Source of the DNA: Candidatus Nomurabacteria bacterium | Lineage (GTDB): Bacteria; Patescibacteriota; Minisyncoccia; Phycocordibacterales; UBA5272 | Reading direction: 5' to 3' | NCBI GenBank assembly: GCA_037134695.1 | Contig: JBAXLU010000003.1 | Span: 1 to 46,779 of the forward strand | DNA length: 46,779 nt | Shown: piece by piece, positions 2,303-43,727 of the stretch | Numbering within the stretch: the first letter of the stretch is position 1 | Layout of the letters: each line of letters starts with the position of its first letter | Position numbers and translations under genes: made by a program | The notes under the pieces: model-generated | Databases searched by the model: none | The model's input: only the letters and a program-made list of their open reading frames with translations | What the model was told of the DNA's origin: nothing

Positions 2303-2428
2303 CTAAATCTACAAAATCATTTCATCTACTTTGTCACTACGGAATTTTTCTCAGTCAACGTACTATCTTGTACGTCTCCCTCAAAAAATTCCTAGGCTCC
2401 TTGTATCTGAAACAATTTTCTAGATTTA
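2303..2428. repeat. Stop-adjacent structured repeat, copy 1 (after rpmG)
   Basis: ttcatctactttgtc...ggaattttt...gtcaacgtac-tatctt-gtacgtc...aaaaattcc...ccttgtatctgaa. Confidence 0.85.
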
Positions 2429-2430
2429 TC

Positions 2431-2461
2431 AAAAAATCACTATCCAAAATAGTGATTTTTT
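2431..2461. terminator. Putative intrinsic terminator
   Basis: aaaaatcactat-ccaaa-atagtgattttt hairpin ending in a T tract. Confidence 0.55.
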
Positions 2462-2469
2462 GTTATTAT
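2461..2469 (+). promoter_or_regulatory. Putative extended -10 promoter for the L1-stalk RNA/tRNA-Trp transcript
   Basis: TGtTATTAT. The predicted +1 (~2476) coincides with the first base of the RNA's closing stem. Confidence 0.55.
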
Positions 2470-2475
2470 GTCAAA

Positions 2476-2577
2476 GCGTTCATCAGTTCATGCGTAGGAT
2501 AGGCGGGAGGCTTTGAAGCGATGTTTCCGGATGTCGTGGAGCCAATCTTGAAATACCAGCCCTTGGGTGATGAACGT
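2476..2577 (+). ncRNA. Stand-alone 23S rRNA L1-stalk-like RNA (H76/H77/H78)
   Basis: GTAGGATAGGCGGGAGGCTTTGAAG-[CGATGTT tccg GATGTCG]-TGGAGCCAATCTTGAAATACCAGCCCTT matches the conserved L1-stalk sequence of bacterial 23S rRNA. It is closed by the stem GCGTTCATCA/TGATGAACGT and is not flanked by other rRNA sequence. Confidence 0.8.
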
Positions 2578-2584
2578 ACCCTTT

Positions 2585-2655
2585 GGGCCTATAGTTTAAT
2601 GGTAGAACTTCGGTTTCCAAAACCGCCGGTCGGGGTCCGATTCCTCGTGGGCCCG
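2585..2655 (+). tRNA. tRNA-Trp (CCA)
   Basis: Acceptor stem GGGCCTA/TGGGCCC; D-arm with AATGGTA; anticodon CCA at 2617-2619; T-arm CGGGG-TCCGATT-CCTCG. No encoded CCA end. Confidence 0.92.
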
Positions 2656-2657
2656 CA

Positions 2658-2698
2658 AAATTTAAAACACATAATTTGTAATTATGTGTTTTAAATTT
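2658..2698. terminator. AT-rich hairpin after tRNA-Trp
   Basis: aaatttaaaacacataat-ttgta-attatgtgttttaaattt, a perfect 18-bp inverted repeat. Confidence 0.5.
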
Positions 2699-2745
2699 AA
2701 TTATCAACTACCAACTATTAACTACTGACTATATACTGTTTGTAT

Positions 2746-3828
2746 ATGGATAAAAAACTTCGCGTGGGGATAAATGGTTTCGGGCGTATTGGTCGTGCCT
2801 TTTTTAAAGTCGCTGCAATGCGTGATGATATGGAAGTTGTTGCAGTGAATGATTTAGGAGACATACATAATCTGGCGTATCTACTACAGTACGATACTGT
2901 TTATAAAGTTGCACCTTATGATGTGACGGCAGAAATACACCCCACTTCGCCTGAGGGCTCCGTGGGGCAAGTGCAAGAACAATATTTACTTACCAGTGGA
3001 GCTTTCGAATCAAAAGTCAGAGTCTTCCAAGAAAAAGATCCAAGTGCTATTCCTTGGGGATCACTAAAGGTAGACGTTGTTGTAGAATCAACAGGGCTAT
3101 TTACTACTTATGATAAAGCTATTTTACATTTAAAAGGTGGAGCAAAGCGTGTAGTCATTTCTGCTCCAGCAAAGGAAGGGGAGGATACAAGTGTAAAAGG
3201 GGAGACAATATTACTTGGAGTTAATGAGGAAAAGTTTGGTACATGTGAAGTTACTTCTAATGCTTCTTGTACTACAAATGCATCATCTCCCATTATTGCT
3301 ATCTTAGATGAAGCAATAGGAATAGAAAAAGCCATATTAAATACAGTGCATTCCTATACTGCTTCACAGGGCATTGTAGATGGTCCTAATAAGAAAGATT
3401 TTAGGGAAGGAAGGGCCGCTGCACAGAATATAGTACCTTCATCTACCGGTGCCGCAATTGCTGTTACAAAGGCATTTCCGAGCCTTACAGGGCTTTTTGA
3501 CGGTGTGTCTATTCGCGTCCCTACACCCGCAGGATCGATTGCAGACATCACTTTTATTGCAAAGAGAAATACCACAGCTGAGGAGGTAAACGATATTTTA
3601 AGAAAAGCAGGTGAAGATGTTAGATGGTCAAGTATTTTCCAAGCAACAGATGAAGAATTAGTATCGAGTGATATCATCGGACTTCCTTATGCTTCTATTG
3701 CTGATTTGAAAATGACTCGTGTAGTTGGTGGAAATCTAGTAAAAATTTTAGCTTGGTATGATAATGAGATGGGATATACTAACACCCTCGTAGAACACGT
3801 GTATAGAGTAGGAAAAACTATTATTTAA
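2746..3828 (+). CDS. gap: Glyceraldehyde-3-phosphate dehydrogenase, type I
   Basis: Motifs GINGFGRIGR, SNASCTTN and WYDNE. Start placed at ATG 2746, 8 nt after TATACT. Confidence 0.97.
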   Translation: MDKKLRVGINGFGRIGRAFFKVAAMRDDMEVVAVNDLGDIHNLAYLLQYDTVYKVAPYDVTAEIHPTSPEGSVGQVQEQYLLTSGAFESKVRVFQEKDPSAIPWGSLKVDVVVESTGLFTTYDKAILHLKGGAKRVVISAPAKEGEDTSVKGETILLGVNEEKFGTCEVTSNASCTTNASSPIIAILDEAIGIEKAILNTVHSYTASQGIVDGPNKKDFREGRAAAQNIVPSSTGAAIAVTKAFPSLTGLFDGVSIRVPTPAGSIADITFIAKRNTTAEEVNDILRKAGEDVRWSSIFQATDEELVSSDIIGLPYASIADLKMTRVVGGNLVKILAWYDNEMGYTNTLVEHVYRVGKTII

Positions 3829-3935
3829 TCACCTTTTTGAAGAAATTGTTTATAGGAATTTTTAATTTTTAATTTCTAATTTTTATTGAAATACAGAGAA
3901 TAAGATGATTAAAATTATCTGTTATACTATTAACT

Positions 3936-4400
3936 ATGACAACAATATATTTAGCAACAGATCATGCGGGTTTTGAATTAAAAGAAGAGATTAAAACTTT
4001 TCTTGAAGAGAAGGTAGATTATGAAGTCTATGATTGTGGAGCAATAACTTTGGAGGACGGGGATGATTATCCAGAATATATGGCAAGAGCTGCGGAGAAA
4101 GTTCAGGCGGATGCAATGCACGACCCAGCCGTTGCTGTTATTTTTGGTAAGACCGGAGTAGGTGAGGCAATAGTTGCGAACAGATTTGCCCATGTTCGTG
4201 CCGTTGTTTATGCTGGTGGACCACTTGATGTTATAAAATTATCACGAGAACACAATGATACAAACGTGATCTCAATTGGTGCAAGTTTTGTTTCTGTAAG
4301 TGAAGCTAAGCAAGCAATTGATTTATTTTTGAATACACATTTTTCGCATGATGAACGTCATGTGGATCGTATTCTTCAAATTGAAGAACTAACCAGATAA
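3936..4400 (+). CDS. rpiB: Ribose-5-phosphate isomerase B (RpiB/LacA/LacB family)
   Basis: Motifs ATDHAGFELKE, DDYP, SREHNDTNV and RHVDRI. Confidence 0.92.
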   Translation: MTTIYLATDHAGFELKEEIKTFLEEKVDYEVYDCGAITLEDGDDYPEYMARAAEKVQADAMHDPAVAVIFGKTGVGEAIVANRFAHVRAVVYAGGPLDVIKLSREHNDTNVISIGASFVSVSEAKQAIDLFLNTHFSHDERHVDRILQIEELTR

Positions 4401-4519
4401 GTAAAATTACTTCATCTGCTTTGTTATGAAAGGTTTTTACTCCTGCAACGTACTACTTGTACGTTTTAGTTGTAAAAACCTTTCATGCCTCACATCTAAA
4501 GCAATTTTACTTATCTGGT
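4392..4519. repeat. Stop-adjacent structured repeat, copy 2 (after rpiB)
   Basis: Outer stem accagataagtaaaatt/aattttacttatctggt includes the TAA stop; middle stem atgaaaggtttttac/gtaaaaacctttcat; core acgtac-tactt-gtacgt. Confidence 0.88.
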
Positions 4520-4626
4520 GCCGTGTATTGTATTTGTATTTGACTTGTATTTTCTCCTAACTCCTAACCTGTGAGTTTGTTCTTTTCTTGATATACTAAA
4601 AAGACAGACTAATTTAATTTAAATTT

Positions 4627-5184
4627 ATGAAAAAAATAATAATAACATCCGTTTTAATTGCGGGAACAATTTTTGCAAATGCTCAAAGTGAAGGACGTGG
4701 ACAAAAACAGGAACAGGAACAGAAACAACAACCTCGCGCAAATATGATGAGACGTACCGTACCAGCACAAGTTGTAGCTTCAACTACACGTGCTATGCCT
4801 CCACAAGGAGAGGGACGACCTGAAATAATGCCACCAGTTATAAAAACAGGGGATGATGTAACTGATGCAAAGATAAAAGCATTAACTGTTGAAATGGAAA
4901 CAAAAATAAAAGCCATTCGTGATGAATATCAAGTTAAACTTAAAGAAGTTATTGGTAATAGAAAAATAATTAGTACAATCCCATCTGCACCAGAAATGCC
5001 AGTTTATAAGGAAGTGAGTGACCGAGAAAATGGAAGTAGTACAGAGGGAAAAGCTCCACAACCAGCACCTAGAAGATTATTGGGACAAGTAGAAGGTGTA
5101 AGTACAGAGGGTGTTGGCCAGGCAGTTTCTCAAGATGTTGGTTCACGTATGAGAAATTTCTTTGGAGGGTTATTTGGTAGATAG
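4627..5184 (+). CDS. Hypothetical secreted protein
   Basis: Signal-peptide-like N-terminus (MKKIIITSVLIAGTIFANA), low-complexity Q/P/E segments and a coiled coil. Confidence 0.7.
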   Translation: MKKIIITSVLIAGTIFANAQSEGRGQKQEQEQKQQPRANMMRRTVPAQVVASTTRAMPPQGEGRPEIMPPVIKTGDDVTDAKIKALTVEMETKIKAIRDEYQVKLKEVIGNRKIISTIPSAPEMPVYKEVSDRENGSSTEGKAPQPAPRRLLGQVEGVSTEGVGQAVSQDVGSRMRNFFGGLFGR

Positions 5185-5221
5185 TAATTATGGTATATAG
5201 AGTGTAGAGCGTAGGGGAAGA

Positions 5222-5254
5222 AAATGAGTGGTGACCTTCGGTCACCACTCATTT
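5222..5254. terminator. Hairpin between convergent genes
   Basis: aaatgagtggtgacc-ttc-ggtcaccactcattt, a perfect 15-bp stem flanked by inverted heptamer-like arrays. Confidence 0.65.
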
Positions 5255-5330
5255 GCATTTATGGAAACTTGGAACTGGAAATTACTCTTGTGTTTTCTGT
5301 TCCATACACCATATACCATAAAAACCGTTT

Positions 5331-5969: not shown

Positions 5970-5974
5970 AGACT

Positions 5975-6087
5975 AAGTTTAGTTCATAAAGCTGGTTAGT
6001 CAAAAGTCCTTAAAGTCGAAAGTCCATAAAGTAGACACGAATTCGGGCCCACTTTCAACTTTACAAACTTTACAAACTTTTTACTTT
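5975..6087. repeat. Inverted pair of 8-9-mer tandem arrays
   Basis: aaagtccttaaagtcgaaagtccataaagt ... actttcaactttacaaactttacaaacttt. Confidence 0.75.
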
Positions 6088-8861: not shown

Positions 8862-10601
8862 ATGCTTCTACTTGATCTTTTTGTTAGTCAAAATAAATTA
8901 ACTGAACTTGAAGCAAAAGATATTGAATCTGATCTTTCTTTGCGTGATGATATTCTTGTTGATGATATTTTAGCTAAAAAAAATATAAAAGGAGAAGATA
9001 TAACTGAAGTAAGAAGTATCCTTTACGGATTACCTATATATAAAGAAGAAATTCCAGAAGGAAAAGAGCTTACTAAATATATTAGTGTCACACAGTCAAA
9101 ACAGTTGTTGTCTGTTCCACTTGAATTAAAAGAAGGAGTATTGCTGGTTGGTGTGGTAGACCCAGAACATTCAAATGTATTAGATAGTTTACAATTTTTA
9201 TTTGGGACTGATCATCAGGCTTATAAAGTTTATTTGATTTCTTATGAAGATTTTAAAAAACATTTAGGGTTAACTTCTTCTGATATTTTAGATAAAGCAA
9301 CACTGTCTTCAAAAATAGATAATGAAGTTCTGTCTTATGTTTCAAAAGATGATGAACAAAAAGGACAATCAGATGATGATATAGATTTAACTGATATTGA
9401 GGGTGGTATTGATGGAGACTTAGCAAAATTACCAGTGCCAGATATTTTTAGTGTGATACTGCGTTATGCTATTGATAATGCTGCGAGTGATATTCACATT
9501 GAACATACTGGAACAGCTCTTCGTGCTCGTGTTCGATTAGACGGACAATTGGAGACTGCTACCTCACTACCGCCAAGAATTCACCCAATGCTTATTGCTC
9601 GTGTAAAAATTCTTTGTCAAATGAAACTTGATGAAAAAAGAAAACCACAAGATGGTCGTTTTAGTACAAAATTTGGAGATCATAATATAGATTATCGTGT
9701 GTCTACTTTTCCTGGATATTACGGAGAGAAAGTTGTTATTCGTATTTTGGATAGTTATAAAGGTGTACGCCCAATTGATAAACTCGGTTTTTCAGAACAA
9801 ATGATGAGGGAAATTCGAGCAGCACTAGACAGGCCTTATGGGATGATACTAATTTGCGGGCCTACAGGATCAGGAAAAACAACCACTTTATACTCTATGT
9901 TAAATGAGGTTGATCGTGAACATTTAAATGTAGTTTCTCTAGAAGATCCGATTGAATATAACGTTGGAAGTATGAATCAGTCTCAAGTCTTTCCAGAAAT
10001 TGGTTACACTTTTGCATCAGGTCTTCGTTCTATTTTACGTCAAGATCCGGATGTAATTATGGTGGGAGAAATTCGTGATGCAGAAACTGCACAGCTTGCT
10101 ATTCAAGCAGCTTTGACTGGTCACTTAGTATTTTCTACGATACACACCAACACAGCTATTGGTGTCGTTACTCGTTTACTAGATATGGGTGTTGAGCCAT
10201 ATCTTATTGCGCCGACTTTAATAGCGACAATTGGTCAAAGACTTTCTCGTCAGATCGCTGAAGGTTGTGGAAGTAAAATGGAAATGAATACAGGATTAAC
10301 AGAGCTTGTTCAAAGATCATTTAAAGATTTACCAGATGAATTTAAAACAAAAATGGGTCTTGATAGACCGCTTTATGAAGCAAAAGCAAATTCAACATAT
10401 GCTAATGGAACAAAGGGTCGTGTTCCAGTTTTTGAGGTATTAACCTTTACATCAGAGATTCAAGAGGCTGTACTTCATTCGAAAGGGGAAGAAGAAATCT
10501 GGAAAATGGCTCGTGCACAAGGAATGATTACAATGAAAGAGGACGCTATTACTAAGTGTTTGGCGGGTATCATTCCATTTGTAGAAATAAACGAGTTATA
10601 A
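8862..10601 (+). CDS. pilB: Type IV pilus extension ATPase (PilB/GspE family)
   Basis: Motifs ASDIHIE, PQDGR, Walker A GPTGSGKTT, LRQDPD and TGHLVFSTIHTN. Confidence 0.92.
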   Translation: MLLLDLFVSQNKLTELEAKDIESDLSLRDDILVDDILAKKNIKGEDITEVRSILYGLPIYKEEIPEGKELTKYISVTQSKQLLSVPLELKEGVLLVGVVDPEHSNVLDSLQFLFGTDHQAYKVYLISYEDFKKHLGLTSSDILDKATLSSKIDNEVLSYVSKDDEQKGQSDDDIDLTDIEGGIDGDLAKLPVPDIFSVILRYAIDNAASDIHIEHTGTALRARVRLDGQLETATSLPPRIHPMLIARVKILCQMKLDEKRKPQDGRFSTKFGDHNIDYRVSTFPGYYGEKVVIRILDSYKGVRPIDKLGFSEQMMREIRAALDRPYGMILICGPTGSGKTTTLYSMLNEVDREHLNVVSLEDPIEYNVGSMNQSQVFPEIGYTFASGLRSILRQDPDVIMVGEIRDAETAQLAIQAALTGHLVFSTIHTNTAIGVVTRLLDMGVEPYLIAPTLIATIGQRLSRQIAEGCGSKMEMNTGLTELVQRSFKDLPDEFKTKMGLDRPLYEAKANSTYANGTKGRVPVFEVLTFTSEIQEAVLHSKGEEEIWKMARAQGMITMKEDAITKCLAGIIPFVEINEL

Positions 10602-10723
10602 GCGCAATAAAATAATTCATCTACTTTGTTGTGATTTCGTTTTTATAAGTCAACGTACTATTAAGTACGTCTTCTTCTAAAAACTCATCACGCCTCGTAT
10701 CTGAATCATTTTCTTGCGCTTAT
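10598..10723. repeat. Stop-adjacent structured repeat, copy 3 (after pilB)
   Basis: Outer stem ataagcgcaa/ttgcgcttat includes the TAA stop; core gtcaacgtac-tattaa-gtacgtc; gcctcgtatctgaa. Confidence 0.88.
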
Positions 10724-16207: not shown

Positions 16208-16912
16208 ATGATAAATCTTTTAAAAAAAAATTACTTTAGTAAAAAACAAGCAGAAATAAAAAATGTGAAAGCTTTTACTCTGGTTGAAACATTAACAGCT
16301 ATGTTTATTATATCAACTATTGTTTTGGGGCCACTTACAGTTGCTATGAATGCAGCAGCATACGCTAGACAGACAAAAGATGTAATGATTGCGACTTATT
16401 TAGCACAAGAATCTACTGAATTAATTCACCATTTACAAGACACCTTATACCTTAAATGTGTTGGTGATGTTTCGGGTGTATCTTGCCCAGCTTCCGACCC
16501 AAATGGTGATGGAGTTTTTGATGAACCAGGTGAATCATCATGGCTTCTTCTAAAGAATTATTTAACTTCAGGTAATTCTTGTTTTTCTAGTGATGGATGT
16601 GCTTATGATTTTATAGATATGACAATTGATGGAAATACTGCCCCAACTAAATATTCACTAAATAGCGGCCTGTGTAATACTCTATCTTTAACTTCTAATT
16701 ATTTATATGTTTGTTCAGGTGCCCATGGGGGTATAGGTGATACAAATACATCTTTTTCAAGAATAGTTAAGGTCGATAATATCGACGTACCAACTGGCGG
16801 TGATTCTGCTTACAATGATGGATTGAGAGTTACAGCTACTGTGTCATTTAGAAGATCTAATGGTTATATTCGTACAGTCAAATTGGTAGATTTCTTACAT
16901 GCCCATAAATAA
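16208..16912 (+). CDS. Minor pilin (PilV-like)
   Basis: A|FTLVETLTAM and ATYLAQESTE. Confidence 0.8.
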   Translation: MINLLKKNYFSKKQAEIKNVKAFTLVETLTAMFIISTIVLGPLTVAMNAAAYARQTKDVMIATYLAQESTELIHHLQDTLYLKCVGDVSGVSCPASDPNGDGVFDEPGESSWLLLKNYLTSGNSCFSSDGCAYDFIDMTIDGNTAPTKYSLNSGLCNTLSLTSNYLYVCSGAHGGIGDTNTSFSRIVKVDNIDVPTGGDSAYNDGLRVTATVSFRRSNGYIRTVKLVDFLHAHK

Positions 16913-17555
16913 TATGATAAATTTAAAACTATTTAAAATAAAAGGAAAAATTAAAAGTTCACATGGATTTGTAATACCTTTTACCTTATTAGTTTGTGCT
17001 ATTATTTTGTCTGTATCGACTGGTATCTCTCTTATCCTAGCCAAGGAACTTTATTTTTCTAAACTTTCTCGCGATAGTCAAGATGCTTATTATGCAGCGG
17101 ACAATGGACTTATGTGTGCTATTGCAATAGATGATGCTTATATTGATCCAGATACTGGCTCAGGTATTTTCCAGTACAGTAATCTTAATGATGCCTCTGC
17201 TGTGCTTAATAAAGTAAATGAAGAAAGAGCTTTAAAATCATTTAATGCTTTAAATCTTTATGGTGGAAATAGTATTAAATGTGCTACATCTGAAATCTTT
17301 GATCCGATAACAAATAGTTTTAAGGTTGATCCTTATCAACGTGAGAATACTTCGCATGTCACTGAGTATGGTAAGAGTTCTAGTTTTATGTTGCATATGA
17401 ATTTAGGGGATGGAACAACAAGGTGTGCAAAAGTGATAGTTAATAAAACAGGTATGTATCGTCAAATTATTTCACAGGGTTACGCAGAATGTCTGGACAC
17501 ACGTTCTAAATACCCAGTTGAACGTGCTGTAGTCAGCGAAACTGAAGTCAAGTAA
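16899..17555 (+). CDS. PilX-like minor pilin
   Basis: G|FVIPFTL lacks Glu5; SQDAYYAADNG motif. Confidence 0.75.
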   Translation: MPINNMINLKLFKIKGKIKSSHGFVIPFTLLVCAIILSVSTGISLILAKELYFSKLSRDSQDAYYAADNGLMCAIAIDDAYIDPDTGSGIFQYSNLNDASAVLNKVNEERALKSFNALNLYGGNSIKCATSEIFDPITNSFKVDPYQRENTSHVTEYGKSSSFMLHMNLGDGTTRCAKVIVNKTGMYRQIISQGYAECLDTRSKYPVERAVVSETEVK

Positions 17556-17725
17556 TTTTCATAATAAAATGACGCACTATTTCTTGTCCTTCGCTTGCTG
17601 GCTACGGACATCTTCGTAGCCAAGCTACTCGAGCTACAGAATTTTTCTTCGTCAATGTAGTATTAACTACATCTCCTTGAAAAATTCCTAGACGCCTCGT
17701 ACTGCATATAATTTCTGGTGAAGAT
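17556..17725. repeat. Stop-adjacent structured repeat, copy 4 (variant with an extra hairpin)
   Basis: Core gtcaatgtag-tattaa-ctacatc; middle stem gaatttttc/gaaaaattc; gcctcgta. Inserted hairpin tggctacg...cgtagcca. Confidence 0.75.
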
Positions 17726-17842
17726 AACACAGTTCAGTTATTTAGTGTGCTTTATCCATTTTCTTTCGAAAATGGATAGCAGATTTTTATAAATATTATC
17801 TATATTTACCAAGCCTTTTTAAGGGTTTTGTGTTATAATTAA

Positions 17843-21756: not shown

Positions 21757-23124
21757 ATGTCGTCTTATTCTTTAGACTATCTTTTCAATCGAGTTTATGA
21801 TTTTTTGCTTTGGATAAAATATACATGGCTTTTTGGAGTTCTTCGTACTAGACCAGAAGACTATCTAGCTTTGCAAGAAAATAGAAATTGGGATGGTCTG
21901 CGCGACAGAGGATGGTTTGACAGTTATTTTGCTATGCAAGGTGAAGCTGTTCCAATAAATGGGATTAATGCTTCTTTGTGGCAGAGAATGGCAGAAAAAC
22001 TTGGGTATAATTTAAAAGACTCTGACGGTGATGGTATACCAGATATTTCTGATCCGGCGCCTAATGATCCAAGTAATTTAACTAACGCACAATTGAAGGA
22101 GCGTTTTCAACCTGACTATACTTTCTCTGATCATGTTAGGGAAGTTTTTGGTATGTCACCAAAAGATACTGATGGAGATGGTGTGCCTGACAGTTATGAA
22201 ATTGCTCATAGTTTGAATCCAAATGATTCTGACAGTGACCACGATGGTCTTTTAGACGGTCAAGAATTAGTTTTAGGAACGGATCCATTAAATAATGACA
22301 GTGATCATGATGGTGTAATTGATGGACGCGATGAGGTACCACTCGATCCACATATTTCTTCTATTGGAATAGATTCTGATGGTGATGGTGTAAGTGATAA
22401 AATAGAAACTCATTTGGGAACCAATCCACATTTAAAAGACTCTGATGGTGATGGGATACCTGACAATATGGATACATACCCACTTGACCCACATAATATT
22501 GGTCAAATTACTACTCTTGATTTTTCTAAACAAACTGAATCGTTACAACTTCATATACAAAGTCCGTTACTTGCTTTCGTGGCACAAATATTTTCTATAC
22601 TTGCAATTGTCGGTTTAGTATTTTTTATACTTTTCTTTTTATGGTTCCTTTACGAATATTGGTCTTCGCTTATTCATTATGAACATCATTTTAATGATAG
22701 TCATGGTCATGGTTCACATAAAGGCGGTGAAGGGCACGGACATTCGCCAGCTGGAATAGAAGGTCTAGCTGTTGGAGAATATGTTGCACCACACACACCA
22801 ACACATGAAGAATTCGAAGCTCATCCACGCTGGGCTATTATAGAAGGGTATATGGCTAGCTCAACTAGTGCTTTGTGGAGAATAGGAATATTAGAAGCAG
22901 ATACAATGCTTGCTGAAGTTTTAAGAGAGAAGGGGTATAAGGGGGCGGACGTTGGTGAAATGTTAGGGTCTGCTAGTTTCAAAACTGTACAACTCGCATG
23001 GGATGCTCATAAGATTAGAAATAAAATTGCACATGAGGGTTCGAGCTTTTCTTTGGAAGAAAGAGAGGCAAAGAGGGCTTATGCCTTGTACGAAGCCGTA
23101 TTCAAGGAACTGAAAGCCATTTAA
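21757..23124 (+). CDS. Membrane protein with thrombospondin type-3-like Ca-binding repeats and a HEPN-like C-terminus
   Basis: Several DxDxDGxxD repeats, a TM helix (~aa 272-302), a His-rich linker and a C-terminal RNKIAH motif. Confidence 0.7.
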   Translation: MSSYSLDYLFNRVYDFLLWIKYTWLFGVLRTRPEDYLALQENRNWDGLRDRGWFDSYFAMQGEAVPINGINASLWQRMAEKLGYNLKDSDGDGIPDISDPAPNDPSNLTNAQLKERFQPDYTFSDHVREVFGMSPKDTDGDGVPDSYEIAHSLNPNDSDSDHDGLLDGQELVLGTDPLNNDSDHDGVIDGRDEVPLDPHISSIGIDSDGDGVSDKIETHLGTNPHLKDSDGDGIPDNMDTYPLDPHNIGQITTLDFSKQTESLQLHIQSPLLAFVAQIFSILAIVGLVFFILFFLWFLYEYWSSLIHYEHHFNDSHGHGSHKGGEGHGHSPAGIEGLAVGEYVAPHTPTHEEFEAHPRWAIIEGYMASSTSALWRIGILEADTMLAEVLREKGYKGADVGEMLGSASFKTVQLAWDAHKIRNKIAHEGSSFSLEEREAKRAYALYEAVFKELKAI

Positions 23125-23267
23125 CATAAATTACTTCATCTACTTTTTGTCCACGACATGAATCTGTTGATTCAGCTACGTAATTTTTCTTCGTCAATGT
23201 AGCATTAGCTACATATTCTTGAAAAATTCCTATGCTTCGCGTATCTAAAGCAATTTCTGTTAAATGG
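23117..23267. repeat. Stop-adjacent structured repeat, copy 5
   Basis: Outer stem ccatttaaca/tgttaaatgg includes the TAA stop; core gtcaatgtag-cattag-ctacat; extra hairpin tgaatc...gattca. Confidence 0.82.
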
Positions 23268-28455: not shown

Positions 28456-29835
28456 ATGTATACCATAACAACAGGTGGTTCTGGCTCTTCAACTGAGTCA
28501 GACTCACGTACTCGTTCATCAGGCCCTCGCGGCCGTTCTTATTCACCATCATCTTCACCGCGTGAAGGTGGTTATTCACACCCTCGTTCATCTCAGGGTG
28601 GATATTCACGCGATGGTGGTTCTTCTCGTGGAGGTTATCAATCACGCGCACCCTCTCGCGGAGGATTTTCTCGTGGAAGAGCTGCAGCACCTCGCGCGTT
28701 TAATGCAAAGCGTGGTTTTAGAAAGGATTATATTGATGAAAAACTTTTTATTAATAAAGAAGCTGGAGTTACAGAAACAGATCACTACAATCCAAAACAT
28801 AAGTTTACTGATTTTAATATCGCAGAACTTTTGTCAGCTAACTTAACAGCAAAGGGACTTATCAGCCCATCACCAATTCAAGATCAGGCTATTCCTGAGG
28901 TTTTATTTGGAAAAGATGTTATCGGTATTGCTTCTACTGGTACAGGAAAAACAGCAGCATTTCTTATTCCTTTAATTAATAAGCTTGTTGCTAACAATGA
29001 TCATAAAATGATGGTCCTTTGTCCAACGCGTGAACTTGCACAACAAGTGGAGGCTGAATTCGTAGCTTTTACTCGTGGTATGAAACTTTTTTCTGTCTCA
29101 TGTGTGGGAGGTGCACCAATTATGCGTCAAATAAAAGAACTAGAGCTTGGAGTCAATGCGGTTATTGGTACACCAGGACGTGTTAAGGATCTTATTGAAC
29201 GTGGAAAAATTAAAATGTCATATTTTGATAGTATTGTTCTTGATGAAGCTGACCGTATGTTAGATATGGGATTCATTGACGACATGCGTTCTATTTTAGG
29301 GGCAATGCCAAAGACAAAGCAAGGACTTTTCTTCTCTGCAACATTTTCTCCAGACATTAAGCGTTTATGTACTGATTTCTTAAATAATCCAATTACTATT
29401 TCTGTTAAAACTCGTGATACAGCAGCTTCTGTTATGCAAGATGTTGTAAGGGTAAACGGAGATAATGAAAAGGTGGAGGCTTTACATGAAATACTTAACA
29501 AGCCAGAATATTCTAAAGTTCTTATATTTAGAGAAATGAAAAGACATGTGGATGGATTGGCGGCAGAACTTACAAAGAGAGGTTTCAAAGCCCTTGCCCT
29601 TCATGGTGATATGCATAATCGTGAACGTGAACGAGCTGTTAAAGCACTTGAAGCTGGAAAGGTACAAGTTGTTATTGCAACTGACGTAGCAGCACGAGGA
29701 CTTGATATTTCAGACATATCACTTGTCGTTAATTATGATATTCCAAATAATTACGAAACTTATATTCATAGAATTGGAAGAACAGGAAGAGCTAAGAAGT
29801 TAGGTGCTGCTATCACTTTTGTCCCAAAAAGATAA
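28456..29835 (+). CDS. DEAD-box RNA helicase with N-terminal RGG/SR-rich extension
   Basis: Q motif, GTGKT, PTRELA, DEAD, SAT, ARGLD and HRIGRTGR. ATG 28456 is preferred over GTG 28432. Confidence 0.95.
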   Translation: MYTITTGGSGSSTESDSRTRSSGPRGRSYSPSSSPREGGYSHPRSSQGGYSRDGGSSRGGYQSRAPSRGGFSRGRAAAPRAFNAKRGFRKDYIDEKLFINKEAGVTETDHYNPKHKFTDFNIAELLSANLTAKGLISPSPIQDQAIPEVLFGKDVIGIASTGTGKTAAFLIPLINKLVANNDHKMMVLCPTRELAQQVEAEFVAFTRGMKLFSVSCVGGAPIMRQIKELELGVNAVIGTPGRVKDLIERGKIKMSYFDSIVLDEADRMLDMGFIDDMRSILGAMPKTKQGLFFSATFSPDIKRLCTDFLNNPITISVKTRDTAASVMQDVVRVNGDNEKVEALHEILNKPEYSKVLIFREMKRHVDGLAAELTKRGFKALALHGDMHNRERERAVKALEAGKVQVVIATDVAARGLDISDISLVVNYDIPNNYETYIHRIGRTGRAKKLGAAITFVPKR

Positions 29836-29959
29836 ACATTAGTAATTTTAGCGAACTACTGCGTTAGAAGAAAATTTTTCTCCATGCGCCGTACTATGTG
29901 TACGTCTTAGTCAAAAAATTTTCTTCTGCCTTGTATTTCATCTAAAATAACTAATGTTT
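29834..29959. repeat. Stop-adjacent structured repeat, copy 6
   Basis: Stems aaacattag/ctaatgttt and agaagaaaattttt/aaaaattttcttct; core cgtac-tatgt-gtacg. Confidence 0.82.
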
Positions 29960-29961: not shown

Positions 29962-30073
29962 AAATATTTTAGCGATCTGCTTTGTTACAAAACATTTTTT
30001 CTCCACGCAATGTACTATTCGTACATCTTGGTCGAAAAAATGTTCTGTGCCTCGCATATCATCTAAAATATTT
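29962..30073. repeat. Structured repeat, copy 7 (tandem to copy 6)
   Basis: Stems aaatattttag/ctaaaatattt and aacatttttt/aaaaaatgtt; core atgtac-tattc-gtacat. Confidence 0.82.
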
Positions 30074-38200: not shown

Positions 38201-38800
38201 ATTATGGATGATGATGGAGCAAAGGGAAATAAGAGTGGTAAGCAAGTTGAATACACAGTACCATTCCGTCGTCAGCCAATTGTAAAAGTTGGAGATATGA
38301 TTAAGAAGGGTCAAATGTTAACTGATGGATCTTGTGATATTGATGAACTATTCCAAAATGCTGGAAAGGAAGTTACAGAAGAATATATCGTAAGTGAAAT
38401 TAACAAAGTTTATGAATTACAAGGTGCAGCTATTTCTCGTAAGCACGTTGAAGTTATTATCAAGCAAATGCTTGGACGTGTGAAAATTACAAACCCAGGC
38501 GAAACTCGCTTTACACAAAGTGATGTCGTTGAAGTTTCAAATTTCCGCTCAGAAAATATGCGTACAAAGGCTCGTGGTGGAGTAGAGGCAAAGGGGCGTT
38601 ATTTGGTACTTGGTATCACAGATGTTGCTTTATCTACTGATTCCTGGCTATCGAGTGCATCATTCCAAAATACAACACGTGTGCTTATAACAGCATCAAC
38701 GAGAGGTCAGATGGATGAGCTACGTGGGCTAAAGGAAAACGTAATAATCGGCCGCTTGATTCCCGCTGGCACCGGCCTCCGCGGAAAGAAACAGTCATAA
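35204..38800 (+). CDS. rpoC: RNA polymerase beta' subunit
   Basis: Zinc finger, LLGKRVDYS, NADFDGD, GEPGTQLTMRTFH and GLKENVIIGRLIPAGTG. Confidence 0.98.
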   Translation: MKTIDTTNFDGLAIKVASPEAIRSWSFGEVTKPETINYRTGRSERYGLFDERIFGPEKDYECYCGKYRRIRYKDIVCEKCGVEVTKSIVRRERMGHIELASPVAHIWFLRTVPSRISLILSQPVGDVEKVVYFAGYIIKSVNLEAKAEILANLDSEFKAKVKSATDEKTQDKLRELLTATKKEIEEIKPWKIFDELTYHRYAMKYGTCFEAGIGAEAIFEIFKTIDLSELEAKIVVLLEKIGSLERDKAEKRLSLVRAFKNAGIRPEWMFMTVIPVIPPGIRPMVALEGGRYAASDVNDLYRRVINRNNRLKKLMEIGAPDVILRNEKRILQEAVDALIDNSARHGQDAVMSQSQKRQLKSLSDNLKGKQGLLRGNLLGKRVDYSARSVIVVGPSLALNECGLPKHMALELFKPFVISKLLERELAFNIRGANKLIEESIPEVWAILEECIEGKYVLLNRAPTLHRLGIQAFNPKLIEGNAISLHPLVCSAFNADFDGDQMAVHLPLSEAAQEEARTLMAANRNLLKPGSGDSIVSPRMDMVLGAYWMTKVIEGEKGEGKIFPTPNEAITAYDFGIVSFRAKITVMPSDKAKYAMFGGKPFETTIGRLLFNSVFPSDFPYINEEVTVKKINTIVDEVILAYGAEVAPTVIDKIKTFGYKYATVSGTTWNIDAVKVPKEKTELVAEGWEQAGRVDESFAEGLLSDEERYEKTIEVWQGVRSKIEKLIPASLEKHGSVYDLINSGARGSIAQVIQMAGMKGIIVNNSGRNLDFPVISSYKEGLTPLEYFITTYGARKGNSDTALKTAQAGYLTRRLVDVAQDAIITEIDCGTKESKVVRKENALGIEVPISKNIRGRIIAEDIVVDGKVLFKKNHLINKDDSVIVENAGVQEAKVFSPLMCQSLHGICQKCYGLDMGRNKKVDLGEAVGIVAAQAIGEPGTQLTMRTFHSGGVSGVDITQGLPRVEEIFERRMPKNPAIIAHEAGEVMGIRDEGKEKIITIIMDDDGAKGNKSGKQVEYTVPFRRQPIVKVGDMIKKGQMLTDGSCDIDELFQNAGKEVTEEYIVSEINKVYELQGAAISRKHVEVIIKQMLGRVKITNPGETRFTQSDVVEVSNFRSENMRTKARGGVEAKGRYLVLGITDVALSTDSWLSSASFQNTTRVLITASTRGQMDELRGLKENVIIGRLIPAGTGLRGKKQS

Positions 38801-38915
38801 ATTGCGAAGCTACTTTGTCGTTACGAAATTTTTCTTAGTCAACGTAGTCCTACCTACGTCTCCTTCGAAAAATTCCTAGACTCCTCGTAGCTTCATCAAT
38901 TTCTGACGTTTCTTT
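38785..38915. repeat. Stop-adjacent structured repeat, copy 8 (after rpoC)
   Basis: Outer stem aaagaaac.gtca/tgacgtttcttt pairs with the rpoC 3' end; gaagctac/gtagcttc; core acgtag-tcctac-ctacgt. Confidence 0.85.
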
Positions 38916-39485: not shown

Positions 39486-39743
39486 ATGAAAATAGGTTAT
39501 AAACCATTTTTTATTAGGCAATTTAATAAATTAGAAAAAATCTTACAAGAAGAAGTTTTAGAAAAAATTGAATTATTAAAAGATATTTCAAGTCATCAGT
39601 ATTTAAAAGTTCATAAATTGCATGGTAAATTAAATAATCAATATAGTTTTTCTGTAAATTATAATTATAGAATTGTTTTTGAATATATTACAAAATCTGA
39701 TATACAGCTTGTAGTTATTGGTGATCATAATATTTATAAATAG
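39486..39743 (+). CDS. RelE/YafQ-family toxin
   Basis: Motifs HKLHGKL, SFSVNYNYRIVF and IGDHNIY. Confidence 0.85.
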   Translation: MKIGYKPFFIRQFNKLEKILQEEVLEKIELLKDISSHQYLKVHKLHGKLNNQYSFSVNYNYRIVFEYITKSDIQLVVIGDHNIYK

Positions 39744-39845: not shown

Positions 39846-39855
39846 TTTGTGTTTG

Positions 39856-39944: not shown

Positions 39945-40017
39945 GGGTTTTTCTGCGAGGTCTGCGTTCGTTCTGCGTAAGTCCGCGCTACTATTCTAAC
40001 TATGTTAGAATAGTAGA

Positions 40018-41670
40018 ATGAACCCCAAAGACCAAGTAAAAGAAAGTCTCTCCATAACTGATGTCGTCTCTACTTATATTCGTCTAGAAAAGTCGGGTGC
40101 TCAATTCCGCGCTCGTTGCCCATTTCATAATGAGCGCACACCGTCATTTTATGTTTCACCTGAGCGAAAATCATTTCACTGCTTCGGTTGCCAACAGCAC
40201 GGTGATATTTTTACTTTTGTAGAAAAAATTGAGAACATTCCATTTTTTGAAGCATTAAAAATTTTAGCAGACCGCGCTGGTGTCACATTAACTAATTCAC
40301 AAAAAAATAAAGAAGATACCAGACTCATAACTTTATTAAAAGATTCAACTGATCACTTTGAAAAAACTTTAAAGAAATCACCAGAAGGGTTGCATTATTT
40401 ACTTGAGCGTGGATTAACAGAAGAAACAATAAATACTTTTCATATTGGTTATGCGAAAAATGAATGGCGCGATTTATTTATAACACTTGCCGCACTTGGT
40501 TATCAACCAGAAGAAATTGAAGATTCTGGTCTTGCGATAAAGGCGACAGATGATAGTGGAAAAACAAAAGGTTGGTACGATCGTTTTCGTGGACGCATTA
40601 TGTTTCCAATTCGAAATGTTTCTGGTGCGACAGTTGGATATTCTGGACGTATTTTGCCGTCTCTTGTTGACCCATCAGTTGCACAGGGGAAATATGTAAA
40701 CACTCCAGAGACAGCCCTTTATCATAAATCAAAAATACTTTTTGGTTATGACACTGCAAAAAAGAAAATGGCTGAGGTTAAATCTGTTGTTGTGGTAGAA
40801 GGACAAATGGATTTGTGTATGTCATATCAAGCCGGCGTACATAATACAGTCGCAGTTTCAGGAACTGCTTTTACAGATGAACATATTCATATTATTAAAC
40901 GCTTTTGTGACACTGTGATACTTTCATTCGACACTGATTCAGCTGGACAAAATGCACTTAAAAAAACTGCGTTACTTTGTTTATTAGGTGGACTCGATGT
41001 TTATGTAGTGGATGACTTTCCTTCAACCGCTGGCTCTGTGGGCACCAAAGACCCAGCAGATTTAATTAAAGAAAGTCCCAAGGCTTGGCTTGATGCCGTA
41101 GAGAAAAAACGTCACGTTGTAGAAGTTATGCTTTCACACATAATAAGAGACGAAACAGATGACAGAAAGCGTGGACAAAGAATTGTTGCTGAAGTTTTAC
41201 CATTTATTAGAGCAATTCAGTCCCCAATAGATAGAGCCCATTTTATAAAAGTTATTTCTGGCAAGACTCATATTCCTGAGAGTACTTTAACTGAAGAATT
41301 AAATCGCGGAGTAGTTGCAACTATTGAGGAAACAAAAACAGAAATTATTAATTTGCCGAGCAAGGAGCGTCTTACTCGCGAGATAATTGCATTTTCTACT
41401 TTATCTAATAAATTAACAGATGAAAGTTTAAAATCATTGTCATTAGATTTAAATCAATTTCCAGAGGCGATACTTCAAGAAGAAATGTTTAAATTAGAAG
41501 AAAAAGTAATAGGGGATAAAGATAAATATTTTAATGATTTGATTGCTACTTATAAAAAGTTGATACATAAAGAGGAAATGATGACATTGCAGAAAAAATT
41601 AAATGAAGAAGGTGCTGACCATGAAGCGGTAATGAAAGAAATAAATGATCACGCTAGGAAAGGATTCTAG
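40018..41670 (+). CDS. dnaG: DNA primase
   Basis: CHC2 zinc finger CPFH...CFGC, DRFRGRIMFPI, KYVNTPET, and TOPRIM motifs VEGQMD and FDTDSAG. Confidence 0.96.
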   Translation: MNPKDQVKESLSITDVVSTYIRLEKSGAQFRARCPFHNERTPSFYVSPERKSFHCFGCQQHGDIFTFVEKIENIPFFEALKILADRAGVTLTNSQKNKEDTRLITLLKDSTDHFEKTLKKSPEGLHYLLERGLTEETINTFHIGYAKNEWRDLFITLAALGYQPEEIEDSGLAIKATDDSGKTKGWYDRFRGRIMFPIRNVSGATVGYSGRILPSLVDPSVAQGKYVNTPETALYHKSKILFGYDTAKKKMAEVKSVVVVEGQMDLCMSYQAGVHNTVAVSGTAFTDEHIHIIKRFCDTVILSFDTDSAGQNALKKTALLCLLGGLDVYVVDDFPSTAGSVGTKDPADLIKESPKAWLDAVEKKRHVVEVMLSHIIRDETDDRKRGQRIVAEVLPFIRAIQSPIDRAHFIKVISGKTHIPESTLTEELNRGVVATIEETKTEIINLPSKERLTREIIAFSTLSNKLTDESLKSLSLDLNQFPEAILQEEMFKLEEKVIGDKDKYFNDLIATYKKLIHKEEMMTLQKKLNEEGADHEAVMKEINDHARKGF

Positions 41671-41673
41671 ATA

Positions 41674-41702
41674 TTGACATACAAGTTATTTATATGTAGA
41701 AT
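41674..41702 (+). promoter_or_regulatory. sigma70 promoter of the orphan gene
   Basis: TTGACA-17 nt-TAGAAT. Confidence 0.7.
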
Positions 41703-41762
41703 AAAGACAGATAAAGGCTGTTTAAGGGGTAATTCTACTCTACAGTTCTTGAAGAGGATTTT

Positions 41763-42014
41763 ATGGACGGTAAACTAGCTTGGTTGGTGCACTGCACTTA
41801 CCTAAATGCAGTCGGTCGCCATTGTTCTTTGGCGACAGTCATCCCGGCGGACTCTAAGGAAGAAGCTACTTATGCTTTTAAAAAAGATTTTCTGTTGGCA
41901 TCTCCCAAATCCCATATTCTGGAAATGGCTAAACCCTCTCAGATTCCCGGAGTTCAGATGACGATAGAGGCGCTTGACCAAGAACAGTTCTGTGTGTCCA
42001 ACATCGTTGGTTAA
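41763..42014 (+). CDS. Orphan protein, SD-led, between dnaG and rpoD
   Basis: GAGGA before the ATG; has its own promoter and terminator. Confidence 0.6.
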   Translation: MDGKLAWLVHCTYLNAVGRHCSLATVIPADSKEEATYAFKKDFLLASPKSHILEMAKPSQIPGVQMTIEALDQEQFCVSNIVG

Positions 42015-42039
42015 TGTGCTTACATCACTTAACCTCAAA

Positions 42040-42067
42040 CCCCCGGCATTTGTCGGGGCCTTTTTTT
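42040..42067 (+). terminator. Intrinsic terminator
   Basis: ccccggca-tt-tgtcgggg followed by a T tract. Confidence 0.7.
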
Positions 42068-42130
42068 ATTATGTGGAAAAAGTCTATAGACTTTTCTCTG
42101 TTTGTATAGTATAATCCGCCTTACGTTACT

Positions 42131-43600
42131 ATGGTGAAAAAAGTATCTTCAAAAAAGAAAAGTGTACAGAAAAAAACTGCGGTAAAACCAGCAGCAAAAA
42201 AAGCTCAAGCAAAAAAGGTTGCCAACAAGTCGAGTTTACGTCCAAGACGTGAACTTGCTAGTTCACCCGTCAAAAAGACTTCTGTAAAGAATAAATTAAA
42301 GAAGAATTCAAAAAAGACCATCTCTAAAAAGCCGGTTAAAAAAATAACAAAGGCTGTTCCTAATAAAAAAGTTTCCAAGAAAGCAATAAAAAAAGTTGTG
42401 GCAAAAAAAGCACCTAAAGTTGTTGCTAAAAAATCTCAAAAGAAAGCAGTTGTAAAAACAGAGACAAAGCCAAAATATAAACCAAAGGCATTTACAATAA
42501 AAACTGGACCATCAAAACCAAAGATAGAGGTTAAAACAAAAAAAGTTTTGACACGTGATCAGAATGAAGAAGAACTTTTAACAAAAGGAAAAGAAAGAGG
42601 ATTCATTACCTATGATGAAATTATTCGTTATTTCCCTACGATTGAAACAGATATTTTATATCTAGAAGAGTTGTATGAAAAAATGTCAGCAGTAGGAATC
42701 GATGTACTAGAAGGAGGGAATCTTCTTGATATGGATGAGGGATTAAAATTAGCAGGAAGTGAAAATACTCATGACAGTATTCAAATGTATCTTCGTGAAA
42801 TTGGTCAATATCCTCTAATTGCAGGAGATGAAGAAAGATCTTTAGCTCAGCGCATAGAAAAAGGTGATTTAGAAGCGGCATCATTACTTGCAAAGGCAAA
42901 CCTTCGTCTTGTTGTTTCTATTGCTAAAAAGTATGTTGGAAGATCATCTGATTTAACATTGCTTGATCTTATTCAAGAAGGAAATCTTGGTTTGTTTAAG
43001 GCTGTAGAAAAATTTGATTGGAATAAAGGATTCAAGTTTTCAACTTATGCGACATGGTGGATTCGTCAGGCTATTACTCGTGCGCTAGCTGATCAGTCTC
43101 GTACAATTCGTATTCCTGTGCACATGGTGGAAACAATTGCAAAATATAAACAAGTTGTACGTCGTCTATCTCAGGACTTGGGACGTGATCCATTAGCTGA
43201 GGAAATTGCTGTTGAAATGGGAGTAGATGTTGAGAAAATTCACATAATTGAAAATATAAATCAAGATACTGTTTCTCTTGAAAAGCCGATTGGAGATGAT
43301 GATGACAAATCAACTCTCGGTGAGTTTATTGCTGATGATAAAATTTTATCCCCAGACGCTGAGGCGTCACACAGAATTCTTTCAGATCAGATTAATGAAA
43401 TATTAAATGACCTTTCACCAAAAGAAAGAAAGATTGTAGAAATGCGAAATGGGTTAGGGGAATTTGATGGTGTAATGCATACCCTTGAAGAAGTAGGAGC
43501 AGAGTTCGGAGTTACTCGCGAACGTATTAGACAAATTGAAGCGAAAGTTCATGAAAAGATAAGAAGTCATGAGAAGTCTGAACGTTTACGTAATTACTAG
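42131..43600 (+). CDS. rpoD: Primary sigma factor with a Lys-rich N-terminal extension
   Basis: Motifs MYLREIG, ANLRLVVSIAKKY, DLIQEGNLGL, FSTYATWWIRQAITRA and VTRERIRQIE; downstream of dnaG. Confidence 0.96.
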   Translation: MVKKVSSKKKSVQKKTAVKPAAKKAQAKKVANKSSLRPRRELASSPVKKTSVKNKLKKNSKKTISKKPVKKITKAVPNKKVSKKAIKKVVAKKAPKVVAKKSQKKAVVKTETKPKYKPKAFTIKTGPSKPKIEVKTKKVLTRDQNEEELLTKGKERGFITYDEIIRYFPTIETDILYLEELYEKMSAVGIDVLEGGNLLDMDEGLKLAGSENTHDSIQMYLREIGQYPLIAGDEERSLAQRIEKGDLEAASLLAKANLRLVVSIAKKYVGRSSDLTLLDLIQEGNLGLFKAVEKFDWNKGFKFSTYATWWIRQAITRALADQSRTIRIPVHMVETIAKYKQVVRRLSQDLGRDPLAEEIAVEMGVDVEKIHIIENINQDTVSLEKPIGDDDDKSTLGEFIADDKILSPDAEASHRILSDQINEILNDLSPKERKIVEMRNGLGEFDGVMHTLEEVGAEFGVTRERIRQIEAKVHEKIRSHEKSERLRNY

Positions 43601-43727
43601 AACAGAATCAATTATCTAACCCCATCTACTTTGTTACGGAGCCTCTCTCGCTCGTCTACGTACTACCTCGTACGTCTCCTCGCTCGCTTCTCCGTGCCTC
43701 GTATCTGGGGCCATATAATTGATTGTT
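43601..43727. repeat. Stop-adjacent structured repeat, copy 9 (after rpoD)
   Basis: aatcaattat/ataattgatt; catctactttgtt; acggag/ctccgt; core acgtac-tacctc-gtacgt; gcctcgtatctg. Confidence 0.85.

Follow-up and report, generated by a model that had tools for sequence, protein, structure and literature searches.

A family of long palindromic repeats at gene ends of a Candidatus Nomurabacteria genome

A stretch of 46,779 nucleotides from a Candidatus Nomurabacteria bacterium (contig JBAXLU010000003.1; hereafter "the window", meaning the whole stretch that was analyzed) contains nine copies of a long imperfect palindrome, each located at the 3' end of a gene, and these copies belong to a family that is present in high copy number in the genome. 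The reading that we favor, and that we regard as about an even call, is that the element is a non-autonomous palindromic DNA repeat of the REP/REPIN/ERIC class, which resides in the 3' untranslated regions (3' UTRs) of genes, has been inserted slowly and repeatedly with a fixed polarity relative to the gene, and has kept its pairing for a long time; a factor that mobilizes it was not found.

Results

Nine copies in the window belong to a family of 55 copies in the genome

The genome that contains the window (G000; the window is its contig C3) comprises 718,655 bases in 82 contigs, has a G+C content of 35% and is 96% complete. An earlier note on this DNA had reported nine copies of a hairpin element that share one polarity and lie at the ends of genes on the + strand. 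All nine were recovered at the positions reported (Table 1), in one shared polarity, and each lies directly 3' of a + strand open reading frame (ORF). For all nine copies, the minus strand of the window is the antisense (template) strand of the upstream gene. Pfam searches identified the upstream genes as those for L33, RpiB, a PilB-type ATPase, a DEAD-box helicase (which is followed by two tandem copies), RpoC, RpoD and a TSP3-repeat protein, and one ORF had no Pfam match. The gene labels of the earlier note were correct for the first six of these, but the gene that it called HEPN-like only matches bacterial TSP3 repeats, and the one that it called pilX-like has no Pfam match. Its statement that the window does not encode a transposase or nuclease is in line with our scan, in which no such family was detected among 43 window ORFs (Pfam).

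We built a covariance model based on seven of the nine window copies and used it to screen G000, genomes of the same genus (congeners; G012, G016, G028, G033, G034, G063 and others), other families of the order and other genomes of the class. The model gave 59 matches in G000, of which 55 were left after removal of four opposite-strand duplicates. These 55 copies per 0.72 Mb correspond to approximately one copy per 13 kb, or about 1% of the DNA.

The hairpin is maintained by compensatory changes

The full hairpins in the window are 112-175 nt long. They contain a core of about 108 bp that extends from AAAAT to ATTTT and whose ends read (T)AAAAT…ATTTT(A); in the family as a whole the size range is about 105-135 bp. 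On the minus strand, the outermost part of the hairpin is a locus-specific outer stem, which is followed by a semi-conserved stem (AAAAU…/…AUUUU), a 2x2 loop formed by two facing 5'-GA-3' dinucleotides (a tandem mismatch) and a 3-bp helix (UAC/GUA). Further inward, purines form a small loop that encloses one G-C pair; next come a stem of variable sequence (10-15 bp) and a second purine loop, and the apex consists of the conserved stem GACGUAC … GUACGUUG. Two window copies deviate by additional sequences in their gene-proximal arm: copy 4 has an extra insert of about 60 nt with its own small hairpin, and copy 5 an extra small hairpin of about 25 nt. A subgroup with such an extra small hairpin in the gene-proximal arm (e.g., TGAATC-NNNN-GATTCA) is also seen elsewhere, the positions being 17575-17635 and 23145-23170 in the window, and C10:11437, C1:60586 and C7:24651 in the genome.

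In an alignment of 48 copies from G000, 89.2% of the cells at paired positions contain standard pairs, as compared to 66% for shuffled alignments and 39-46% when the pairing partners were slid. Of the 38 pairs, 32 have changed on both sides, and none of 500 shuffles matched any of the observed measures. When 74 distinct copies from at least 14 genomes were aligned, 92.9% of the cells were paired and 34 of the 38 pairs were compensated. Both alignments were fitted to the covariance model, which favors the structure, but, given how large the effect is and what the slid controls show, chance or model fitting is unlikely to explain the pairing fully. The mean pairwise identity of the G000 copies is only 0.54, yet 89% of the cells are paired. 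The shared scaffold with a covarying apical stem that had been proposed for the nine copies is therefore real.

The antisense strand is the better folding strand

The earlier note also held that the minus strand folds better, and this applies to 9/9 copies in the window. Likewise, the antisense strand is the better folder in all 48 G000 copies when RNA parameters are used (mean of -38.3 versus -27.6 kcal/mol), and in 46 of the 48 with DNA parameters. Compared with shuffled sequences, the z values of the folds of seven copies range from -7 to -15 for the minus strand and from -3.6 to -11.5 for the plus strand. Unpaired columns on the minus strand are 81% purine (A 50%, G 30%), and in the 74-copy alignment the wobble pair is the most frequent state at two pairs that also covary.

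The outer stems constitute an independent strand test, because they cannot have been inherited from a master copy. Using a rule that is symmetric between the strands, we counted the isolated transition mismatches in the outer stems of 118 copies. On the antisense strand, 18 of these are G-T and only one is A-C (p = 8e-5). Non-template-strand deamination bias would predict the reverse mismatch pattern. Given this excess of G-T against the expected bias, it seems to be the antisense-strand pairing that has been preserved.

The element is located between the stop codon and the terminator

For 35 of the 55 copies, an ORF of at least 60 amino acids on the opposite strand ends between -27 and +9 nt from the edge of the core, and for 34 of them this distance is between -12 and +9 nt. 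As for the remaining copies, copy 1 is located behind the L33 gene, which encodes only 53 amino acids, four occupy the second position of a tandem pair, and the arrangement of about ten is ambiguous; the reverse arrangement alone was found for 3/55 copies. The same gene-end arrangement was found for 12 of 15 copies in eleven other genomes. The stop codon is inside the core match in at least eight copies, and in the conserved terminus itself for rpoC and C1:54162. The position on stop codons that the earlier note had pointed out is right, and is described as a property of REPs in PMC3733652 and PMC12306157.

On contigs C10, C19 and C31 both orientations are present, and each copy follows its own gene. 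The polarity is therefore tied to the gene and not to replication, and replication direction can be ruled out as its cause. These are the results of the genome-wide scan that had been proposed as a check: the orientation follows the gene, and most copies are placed at gene ends.

GC-rich terminator-like hairpins were identified by eye in the printed flanks downstream of at least 12 of 30 elements; a strict terminator finder gave 3/30 versus 71/326, which is an undercount. For copy 1, such a hairpin is present directly downstream, at 2430-2462. The presence of these hairpins indicates that the element belongs to the transcribed 3' UTR without being the terminator. In agreement with this, the element does not have the GC-rich stem plus U tract of an intrinsic terminator, as the stem beside its run of four Ts is AT-rich. 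Insertion into the loop of a pre-existing terminator was ruled out as a general rule, because at copies 1 and 9 the terminator-like hairpin is intact downstream, although it is possible at other sites. A link with tRNA genes was not found either: none of 17 atypical copies is near any of the 31 tRNA/tmRNA genes.

Distribution and turnover among related genomes

Matches to the covariance model were found in 35 of 36 congeners, with a range of 0-58 per genome, in 5 of 24 other families of the order, and, with weaker scores, in 8 of 149 other genomes of the class (one congener in the draw was excluded). So far, the family is confined to a clade of Paceibacteria. Copy numbers can differ strongly between close relatives, as G016 has one copy in its entire genome despite having the same genes. 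Blastn searches of phage and plasmid collections gave no match, and viral contigs gave no matches with a 39.7-bit pattern, which detects 9 of the 55 G000 copies and gave 17 matches in 40 loci of relatives.

Comparison of orthologous gene ends revealed both filled and empty sites. The site behind the L33 gene is filled in G000 only and is empty in G016, G012 and G034. At the equivalent position in G028 (L045; G028:C27, just past the L33 gene), we observed a run of about 130 Ns flanked by a 14-nt inverted repeat; a hairpin element that was masked or not assembled may account for it. Both G000 and G034 have the element at the rpiB site, which is empty in G028 except for a 9-bp hairpin. At the site of copy 3, the relatives contain one to three elements of other subfamilies, or none. 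Orthologues of copy 4 are present in G034, G028 and G012, where they have perfect, species-specific outer stems of 15-17 bp. At the TSP3-gene site (copy 5), an ordinary terminator-like hairpin takes the place of the element in G034 and G028. Copies 6 and 7 form a tandem pair, in which the distal arm of copy 7 pairs with the helicase-stop sequence upstream of copy 6; G034 contains copy 7 alone, and the outer stem of copy 6 is also found in G012 and G063. At the rpoC site, a different subfamily is present just past the stop codon in G028, and G012, G016 and G063 lack an element. Finally, 5 of 78 species carry an element at the rpoD site, where at least three subfamilies are represented, always on the antisense strand.

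The combination of filled and empty orthologous sites, tandem copies and differing subfamilies at one and the same gene end argues for repeated insertion. Together with the 0-58 matches among congeners, this is the behavior of a multicopy mobile palindromic repeat; the earlier note had suggested a resemblance to palindromic multicopy elements of deltaproteobacterial genomes. In orthologous copies the pairing is kept while the stems are rewritten. Judged by the identities between paralogues, the copies are old. Some paralogues (identities up to 0.91) are closer to each other than the rpiB orthologues of G000 and G034, the latter being judged by eye.

Outer stems are made to match the native gene sequence

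Pairing extends into the flanks beside the core over a median of 7-8 bp, as compared to 0 when flanks of different copies are combined. The proximal arm of these outer stems is native gene sequence; for instance, the C-terminus of RpiB is conserved in species without the element. Therefore, it must be the distal arm that has been made to match. This distal arm is complementary to native sequence that often includes the stop codon and the last codons of the gene.

Stems of this kind are not restricted to the element. The ordinary terminator-like hairpins of G000 include perfect palindromes of up to 32 bp, which extend across the stop codon and up to about 13 nt into the coding sequence (examples are given in Table 1). 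In a set of 578 genes, 17 stems of at least 12 bp were found at stop codons and none at control positions. These counts point to templated palindrome growth as a general process in these genomes, one that is not specific to the element.

Table 1. Location of the nine copies of the element in the window, and of long palindromes at stop codons.
Feature	Position	Strand	Description
Copy 1	2304..2428	-	Begins 1-2 nt past the TAG stop of the L33 gene (2141-2302); 108.3 bits
Copy 2	4392..4519	-	Outer stem includes the TAA stop (4398-4400) and the last rpiB codons; 111.5 bits
Copy 3	10598..10723	-	Outer stem includes the TAA stop of the PilB-type ATPase gene; 102.8 bits
Copy 4	~17556..17730 (limits approximate)	-	Degenerate; follows ORF 16899-17555; core 17616-17709, 46 bits
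Copy 5	23117..23267	-	Outer stem spans the stop of the TSP3-repeat gene (21757-23124); 31.3 bits
Copy 6	29834..29959	-	First member of tandem pair; begins at the TAA stop of the DEAD-box helicase gene; 90.8 bits
Copy 7	29962..30073	-	Second member of tandem pair; 98 bits
Copy 8	38785..38915	-	Outer stem spans the last rpoC codons; TAA stop (38798-38800) within the conserved terminus of the element; 95.9 bits
Copy 9	43601..43727	-	GC-richer subfamily; begins directly past the TAG stop of rpoD; 85.9 bits
Long stop-codon palindromes	C9:12786-14057; C2:58651-59163; C2:54974-56347		Stems of 32, 30 and 24 bp, respectively; also at the L33 gene end of G034

Other features of the window

Positions 2476-2577 of the window, a stretch of 102 nt, match positions 2120-2221 of the bacterial 23S rRNA model with a score above the gathering score (55.2 bits). 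This stretch is isolated, with the L33 gene on one side and a tRNA gene on the other, and G016 has a similar one; it may represent a fragment of an rRNA or a mimic of the L1 stalk. A dispersed repeat (ACTTTCAACTTTA…AACTTT…) is present upstream of genes at positions 1427-1461, 6051-6085 and 45040-45074, with matches in G028 and G034, and tandem motifs resembling TTAGGAG are located downstream of genes in G028. On the minus strand, positions 43925-44506 contain an ORF made up of AT-rich tandem repeats of 12, 24 and 27 nt, which has no Pfam match; low-complexity sequences similar to it are found past rpoD in relatives. In addition, the window encodes type II toxin domains that are MazF/PemK-like (1753-2085) and HigB-like (39486-39743). 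G016 lacks the HigB-like pair, which lies between rpoC and dnaG; the two matched blocks are only about 80 nt apart in that genome.

Discussion

Arguments against a mobile repeat

The evidence for repeated insertion with maintained pairing is the basis for our view that the element is a slowly mobile, non-autonomous repeat. Several results weigh against this view. Some of them concern the absence of a suitable enzyme; the search for a partner covered seven named protein families. No match to Y1/RAYT proteins was found in G000. Y1/RAYT-like genes are present in 20 of 41 congeners, and in 14 Y1-gene regions from 10 congeners the element was matched twice, once at a distance of about 1 kb from the gene and once weakly (22 bits). 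Four of these congener Y1 genes are bordered by short GC-rich palindromes of their own and not by the long element. We therefore rejected Y1/RAYT as mobilizer for G000, given that the gene is lacking and that the congener genes are bordered by other palindromes. Thus, no partner was found for the suggestion of the earlier note that the hairpin is a substrate of a nuclease or transposase, for which co-occurrence with RAYT or HUH genes had been put forward as a check. The genus seems to contain a classical REP-RAYT system alongside the long element and distinct from it. A short GC-rich palindrome of the type that borders the RAYT-like Y1 genes in G028 and G034 (L107-L110) was also observed in the window past copy 9, at about 43745-43775 (TACGAAGG…CCTTCGTA).

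Other enzymes gave a similar picture. Reverse transcriptases, which are present in 19 of 41 congeners, were not detected in G000 or G034, and TnpB was not detected in G000 or in four other high-copy genomes. For the integron integrase (TIGR02249), the best score in five genomes (G000 and four high-copy ones) was 75.8 bits against a cut-off of 265, and integron-less control genomes scored alike. G000 has a single IS110-type gene, a frame of 372 amino acids that lies alone on contig C63 (1,636 bases) with no element nearby, and the IS110 family was not found in four other high-copy congeners. Contig C63 appears GC-richer than G000 by eye, and its IS110 gene may be a recent arrival or a binning contaminant.

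The copies themselves provide further counterarguments. The identity between nearest paralogues peaks at 0.91 in G000, 0.87 in G034 and G028, and 0.80 in G033, where G034 and G028 were represented by their 22-23 best-scoring copies and G033 by seven. Unlike in active MITE or REPIN populations, near-identical copies are absent from the three high-copy genomes sampled (maximum 0.87-0.91). Such divergence fits long-term selection on each copy, i.e., a function for the host, at least as well as it fits a mobile repeat. The 9-bp hairpin at the empty rpiB site of G028 can equally be read as a footprint of the element or as a pre-existing target. As for the strand preference, at the level of single pairs the antisense strand is favored at only 17 pairs and the sense strand at 6, of 38, and much of the energy gap between the strands goes back to features that the family inherited from its ancestor, namely four wobble positions and the purine-rich loops. 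Finally, an orientation tied to the gene points to a constraint at the RNA level, and the preserved strand is not the transcribed one; handling of single-stranded DNA combined with selection on the mRNA could reconcile these two facts, but this is something that we infer.

An element acting in the sense mRNA

A rather unlikely alternative is that the element acts in cis for the host in the 3' UTR of the sense mRNA. As a long hairpin abutting the stop codon, it would modulate translation termination, protect the 3' end of the mRNA, or link the end of translation to that of transcription; selection would maintain every copy, and the family would owe its spread to its usefulness. According to this view, its place between stop codon and terminator would mean that it is transcribed with the gene, and its orientation and its distance from the stop codon are indeed tied to the gene. 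Orthologous copies persist across a protein divergence of about 20-25% while their stems change by compensated substitutions, near-identical copies are missing, and at the TSP3-gene site the element replaces the terminator-like hairpin of the relatives. The sense strand, too, folds far better than shuffled sequences. Moreover, E. coli REPs near stop codons act in such a way: those closer than 16 nt to the stop codon lower translation and stall ribosomes, as stated in PMC12306157. What argues against a sense-mRNA element is that the pairing is better kept on the other strand, as seen from the G-T excess in the outer stems and from the wobble states at covarying pairs. On the sense strand, the loops are 81% pyrimidine, and pyrimidine-rich loops are unusual for structured RNAs. 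In addition, the close relative G016 has the same genes with a single copy, and the number of matches among congeners varies between 0 and 58.

A structured antisense RNA

The opposite possibility, that each copy gives rise to a structured antisense RNA whose purine-rich loops bind a protein or RNA partner, was one of the two suggestions of the earlier note, and appears improbable to us. The antisense strand is the better folder throughout and the only one on which wobble is tolerated, and the composition of its loops together with the tandem G-A looks typical of a structured RNA. However, no positioned antisense promoter was found, the flanks being unique and without a conserved motif beyond about 7 nt. 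Hexamers resembling a -10 box are about equally frequent on the two strands (84 and 74 of 111), and promoter-like sites are not enriched (36 found versus 37.2 expected). An antisense RNA would require 55 independent promoters, and in many copies, including copy 1, a terminator-like hairpin of the sense strand stands in the path of an incoming antisense transcript. A search of Rfam, which had been proposed as a check, did not assign any copy to a described family at gathering thresholds, and with lenient E-values gave one chance match to a miRNA (28 bits versus a threshold of 90). A K-turn bound by an L7Ae-type protein was rejected as well, because none of 41 genomes encodes a protein of this family (PF01248), and because the tandem G-A is bounded by Watson-Crick pairs on both sides and does not have the kink-turn geometry of a three-base bulge next to a tandem G-A.

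Also doubtful, to a similar degree, is a more far-reaching idea that draws on analogy with integron attC sites: the element could be more than a passenger repeat, namely a gene-end module specific to these bacteria with reduced genomes, whose template strand would be read by a dedicated factor, as folded single-stranded DNA or as cis-antisense RNA, and which would be kept by self-templating palindrome growth. Such a module would resemble attC in function, without an integrase and at housekeeping genes.

A site read in the DNA

Least probable among the alternatives is a site that acts at the DNA level for the host or a recombinase, either as an attC-like bottom-strand substrate of a tyrosine recombinase or as a binding site, placed where transcription units end, for a nucleoid, gyrase or DNA-uptake protein: its size of about 110-130 nt, gene 3' ends, uniform polarity and non-coding-strand folding may parallel attC, each genome tested has one to three tyrosine recombinases of a generic kind, and DNA hairpins tolerate G-T and tandem G-A, in keeping with the better fold of the antisense strand with DNA parameters, but matches to the integron integrase are far under the cut-off, the neighbors are housekeeping genes in conserved order and not cassettes, R''/R' consensus boxes were not seen at the ends when the sequences were read, and a site read in the duplex would not favor the wobble pairs of one strand.

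A possible course of events

If the element is a slowly mobile palindromic repeat, as we favor, it would enter the few bases between the stop codon and the terminator, repeatedly and slowly and in the same polarity to the gene, and would then persist for a long time with its pairing maintained. The outer stems would be added after insertion by a general process that extends palindromes, probably intrastrand template switching, during which only the non-coding arm would be free to change. The antisense strand might be handled as folded single-stranded DNA during copying or maintenance, as is the case for REP/RAYT, IS200/IS605 and integron attC. The handling of single-stranded DNA is suggested by the fact that antisense pairing is preserved, yet no sign of antisense transcription was found. 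The element itself would be transcribed in the 3' UTR of the mRNA in the polarity that folds more weakly. A hairpin that touches the stop codon can be expected to influence the termination of translation or the stability of the 3' end, as has been reported for E. coli REPs at most 15 nt away from a stop, and selection against the stronger-folding polarity in the mRNA could by itself fix the orientation.

Implications

Repeat families of this sort have mostly been studied in Proteobacteria, and none has been described in candidate-phyla-radiation bacteria in the full-text literature searched. Here, a single family accounts for about 1% of the DNA in a genome of 0.72 Mb. It marks core genes, among them rpoC and rpoD, at their 3' ends with an almost fixed polarity, and has a structure that outlasts most of its sequence. 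With hundreds of copies and many filled and empty sites, it offers a comparative system to address how gene ends are chosen, which strand is functional, and in what way small genomes tolerate or use such elements. On the practical side, the elements are a likely source of contig breaks and of errors in gene-end annotation in metagenome-assembled genomes; two copies hold the upstream stop codon in their own terminus.

Comparison with known systems

The element shares with REP/BIME and REPIN sequences that it is a high-copy intergenic palindrome near the 3' end of the upstream ORF. According to PMC3733652, REPs lie less than 20 bp from the ends of upstream ORFs, whereas their distance from the following gene varies; they are transcribed, and in some cases they provide the stop codon. 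As stated there as well, dimers of REPs can fold into a hairpin of about 100 nt, and some REP families are without a dedicated transposase. In contrast to the two palindromes of 20-40 nt of REPs, the element consists of one long hairpin of 105-135 nt, and it has a strict polarity relative to the gene. A GTAG sequence that recalls the REP tag is conserved on the folded strand (…AAAGTAGAT…), but it is located on the 3' side of the inner hairpin, and part of it is paired (GUA pairs with UAC, and GA belongs to the tandem G-A), whereas the GTAG or CGTC tag of REPs is unpaired and at one end of the palindrome; on the sense strand, CGTC adjoins the apical stem. The situation also differs from REPIN-RAYT systems, in that G000 has no RAYT gene flanked by repeats, the RAYT-like genes of congeners have other palindromes, and the copies, being at most 0.91 identical, are not a population around a master sequence.

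Similar in length are the ERIC/IRU sequences of enterobacteria and the Correia/NEMIS sequences of Neisseria, which are imperfect palindromes as well, about 100-155 bp long. They lie in transcribed regions between genes and form long RNA hairpins that can alter mRNA stability depending on their orientation. Both orientations are found in the ERIC and Correia families, whose terminal inverted repeats are conserved and accompanied by a TA duplication. For the element described here, one polarity dominates and the termini grade into locus-specific stems, and no similarity was seen in the phage and plasmid collections. IS200/IS605 miniature elements are alike in having strand-specific imperfect hairpins, which the Y1 HUH enzyme handles as single-stranded DNA, with polar insertion and no target duplication. 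They differ in that G000 lacks Y1 and TnpB, in that there is one large hairpin instead of separate left and right subterminal hairpins, and in that the polarity follows the gene and not the direction of replication.

Integron attC sites, including the Vibrio repeats of about 120 nt, are imperfect hairpins of 57-141 nt located directly past ORFs in one polarity, and their structure is more conserved than their sequence; what folds and is used is the complement of the coding strand. The size of the hairpin, its position past ORFs, the uniform polarity and the folding of the non-coding strand are features that the element may share. Nevertheless, there is neither an integrase nor a cassette array (rpoC, rpoD and the L33 gene are in conserved synteny), and no R''/R' boxes (consensus RYYYAAC … GTTRRRY) were seen at the ends. 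Taken together, the family is new within the known broad class of palindromic intergenic repeats and not a new kind of system, and what makes it unusual within that class is its strict polarity, its antisense-biased pairing and its age.

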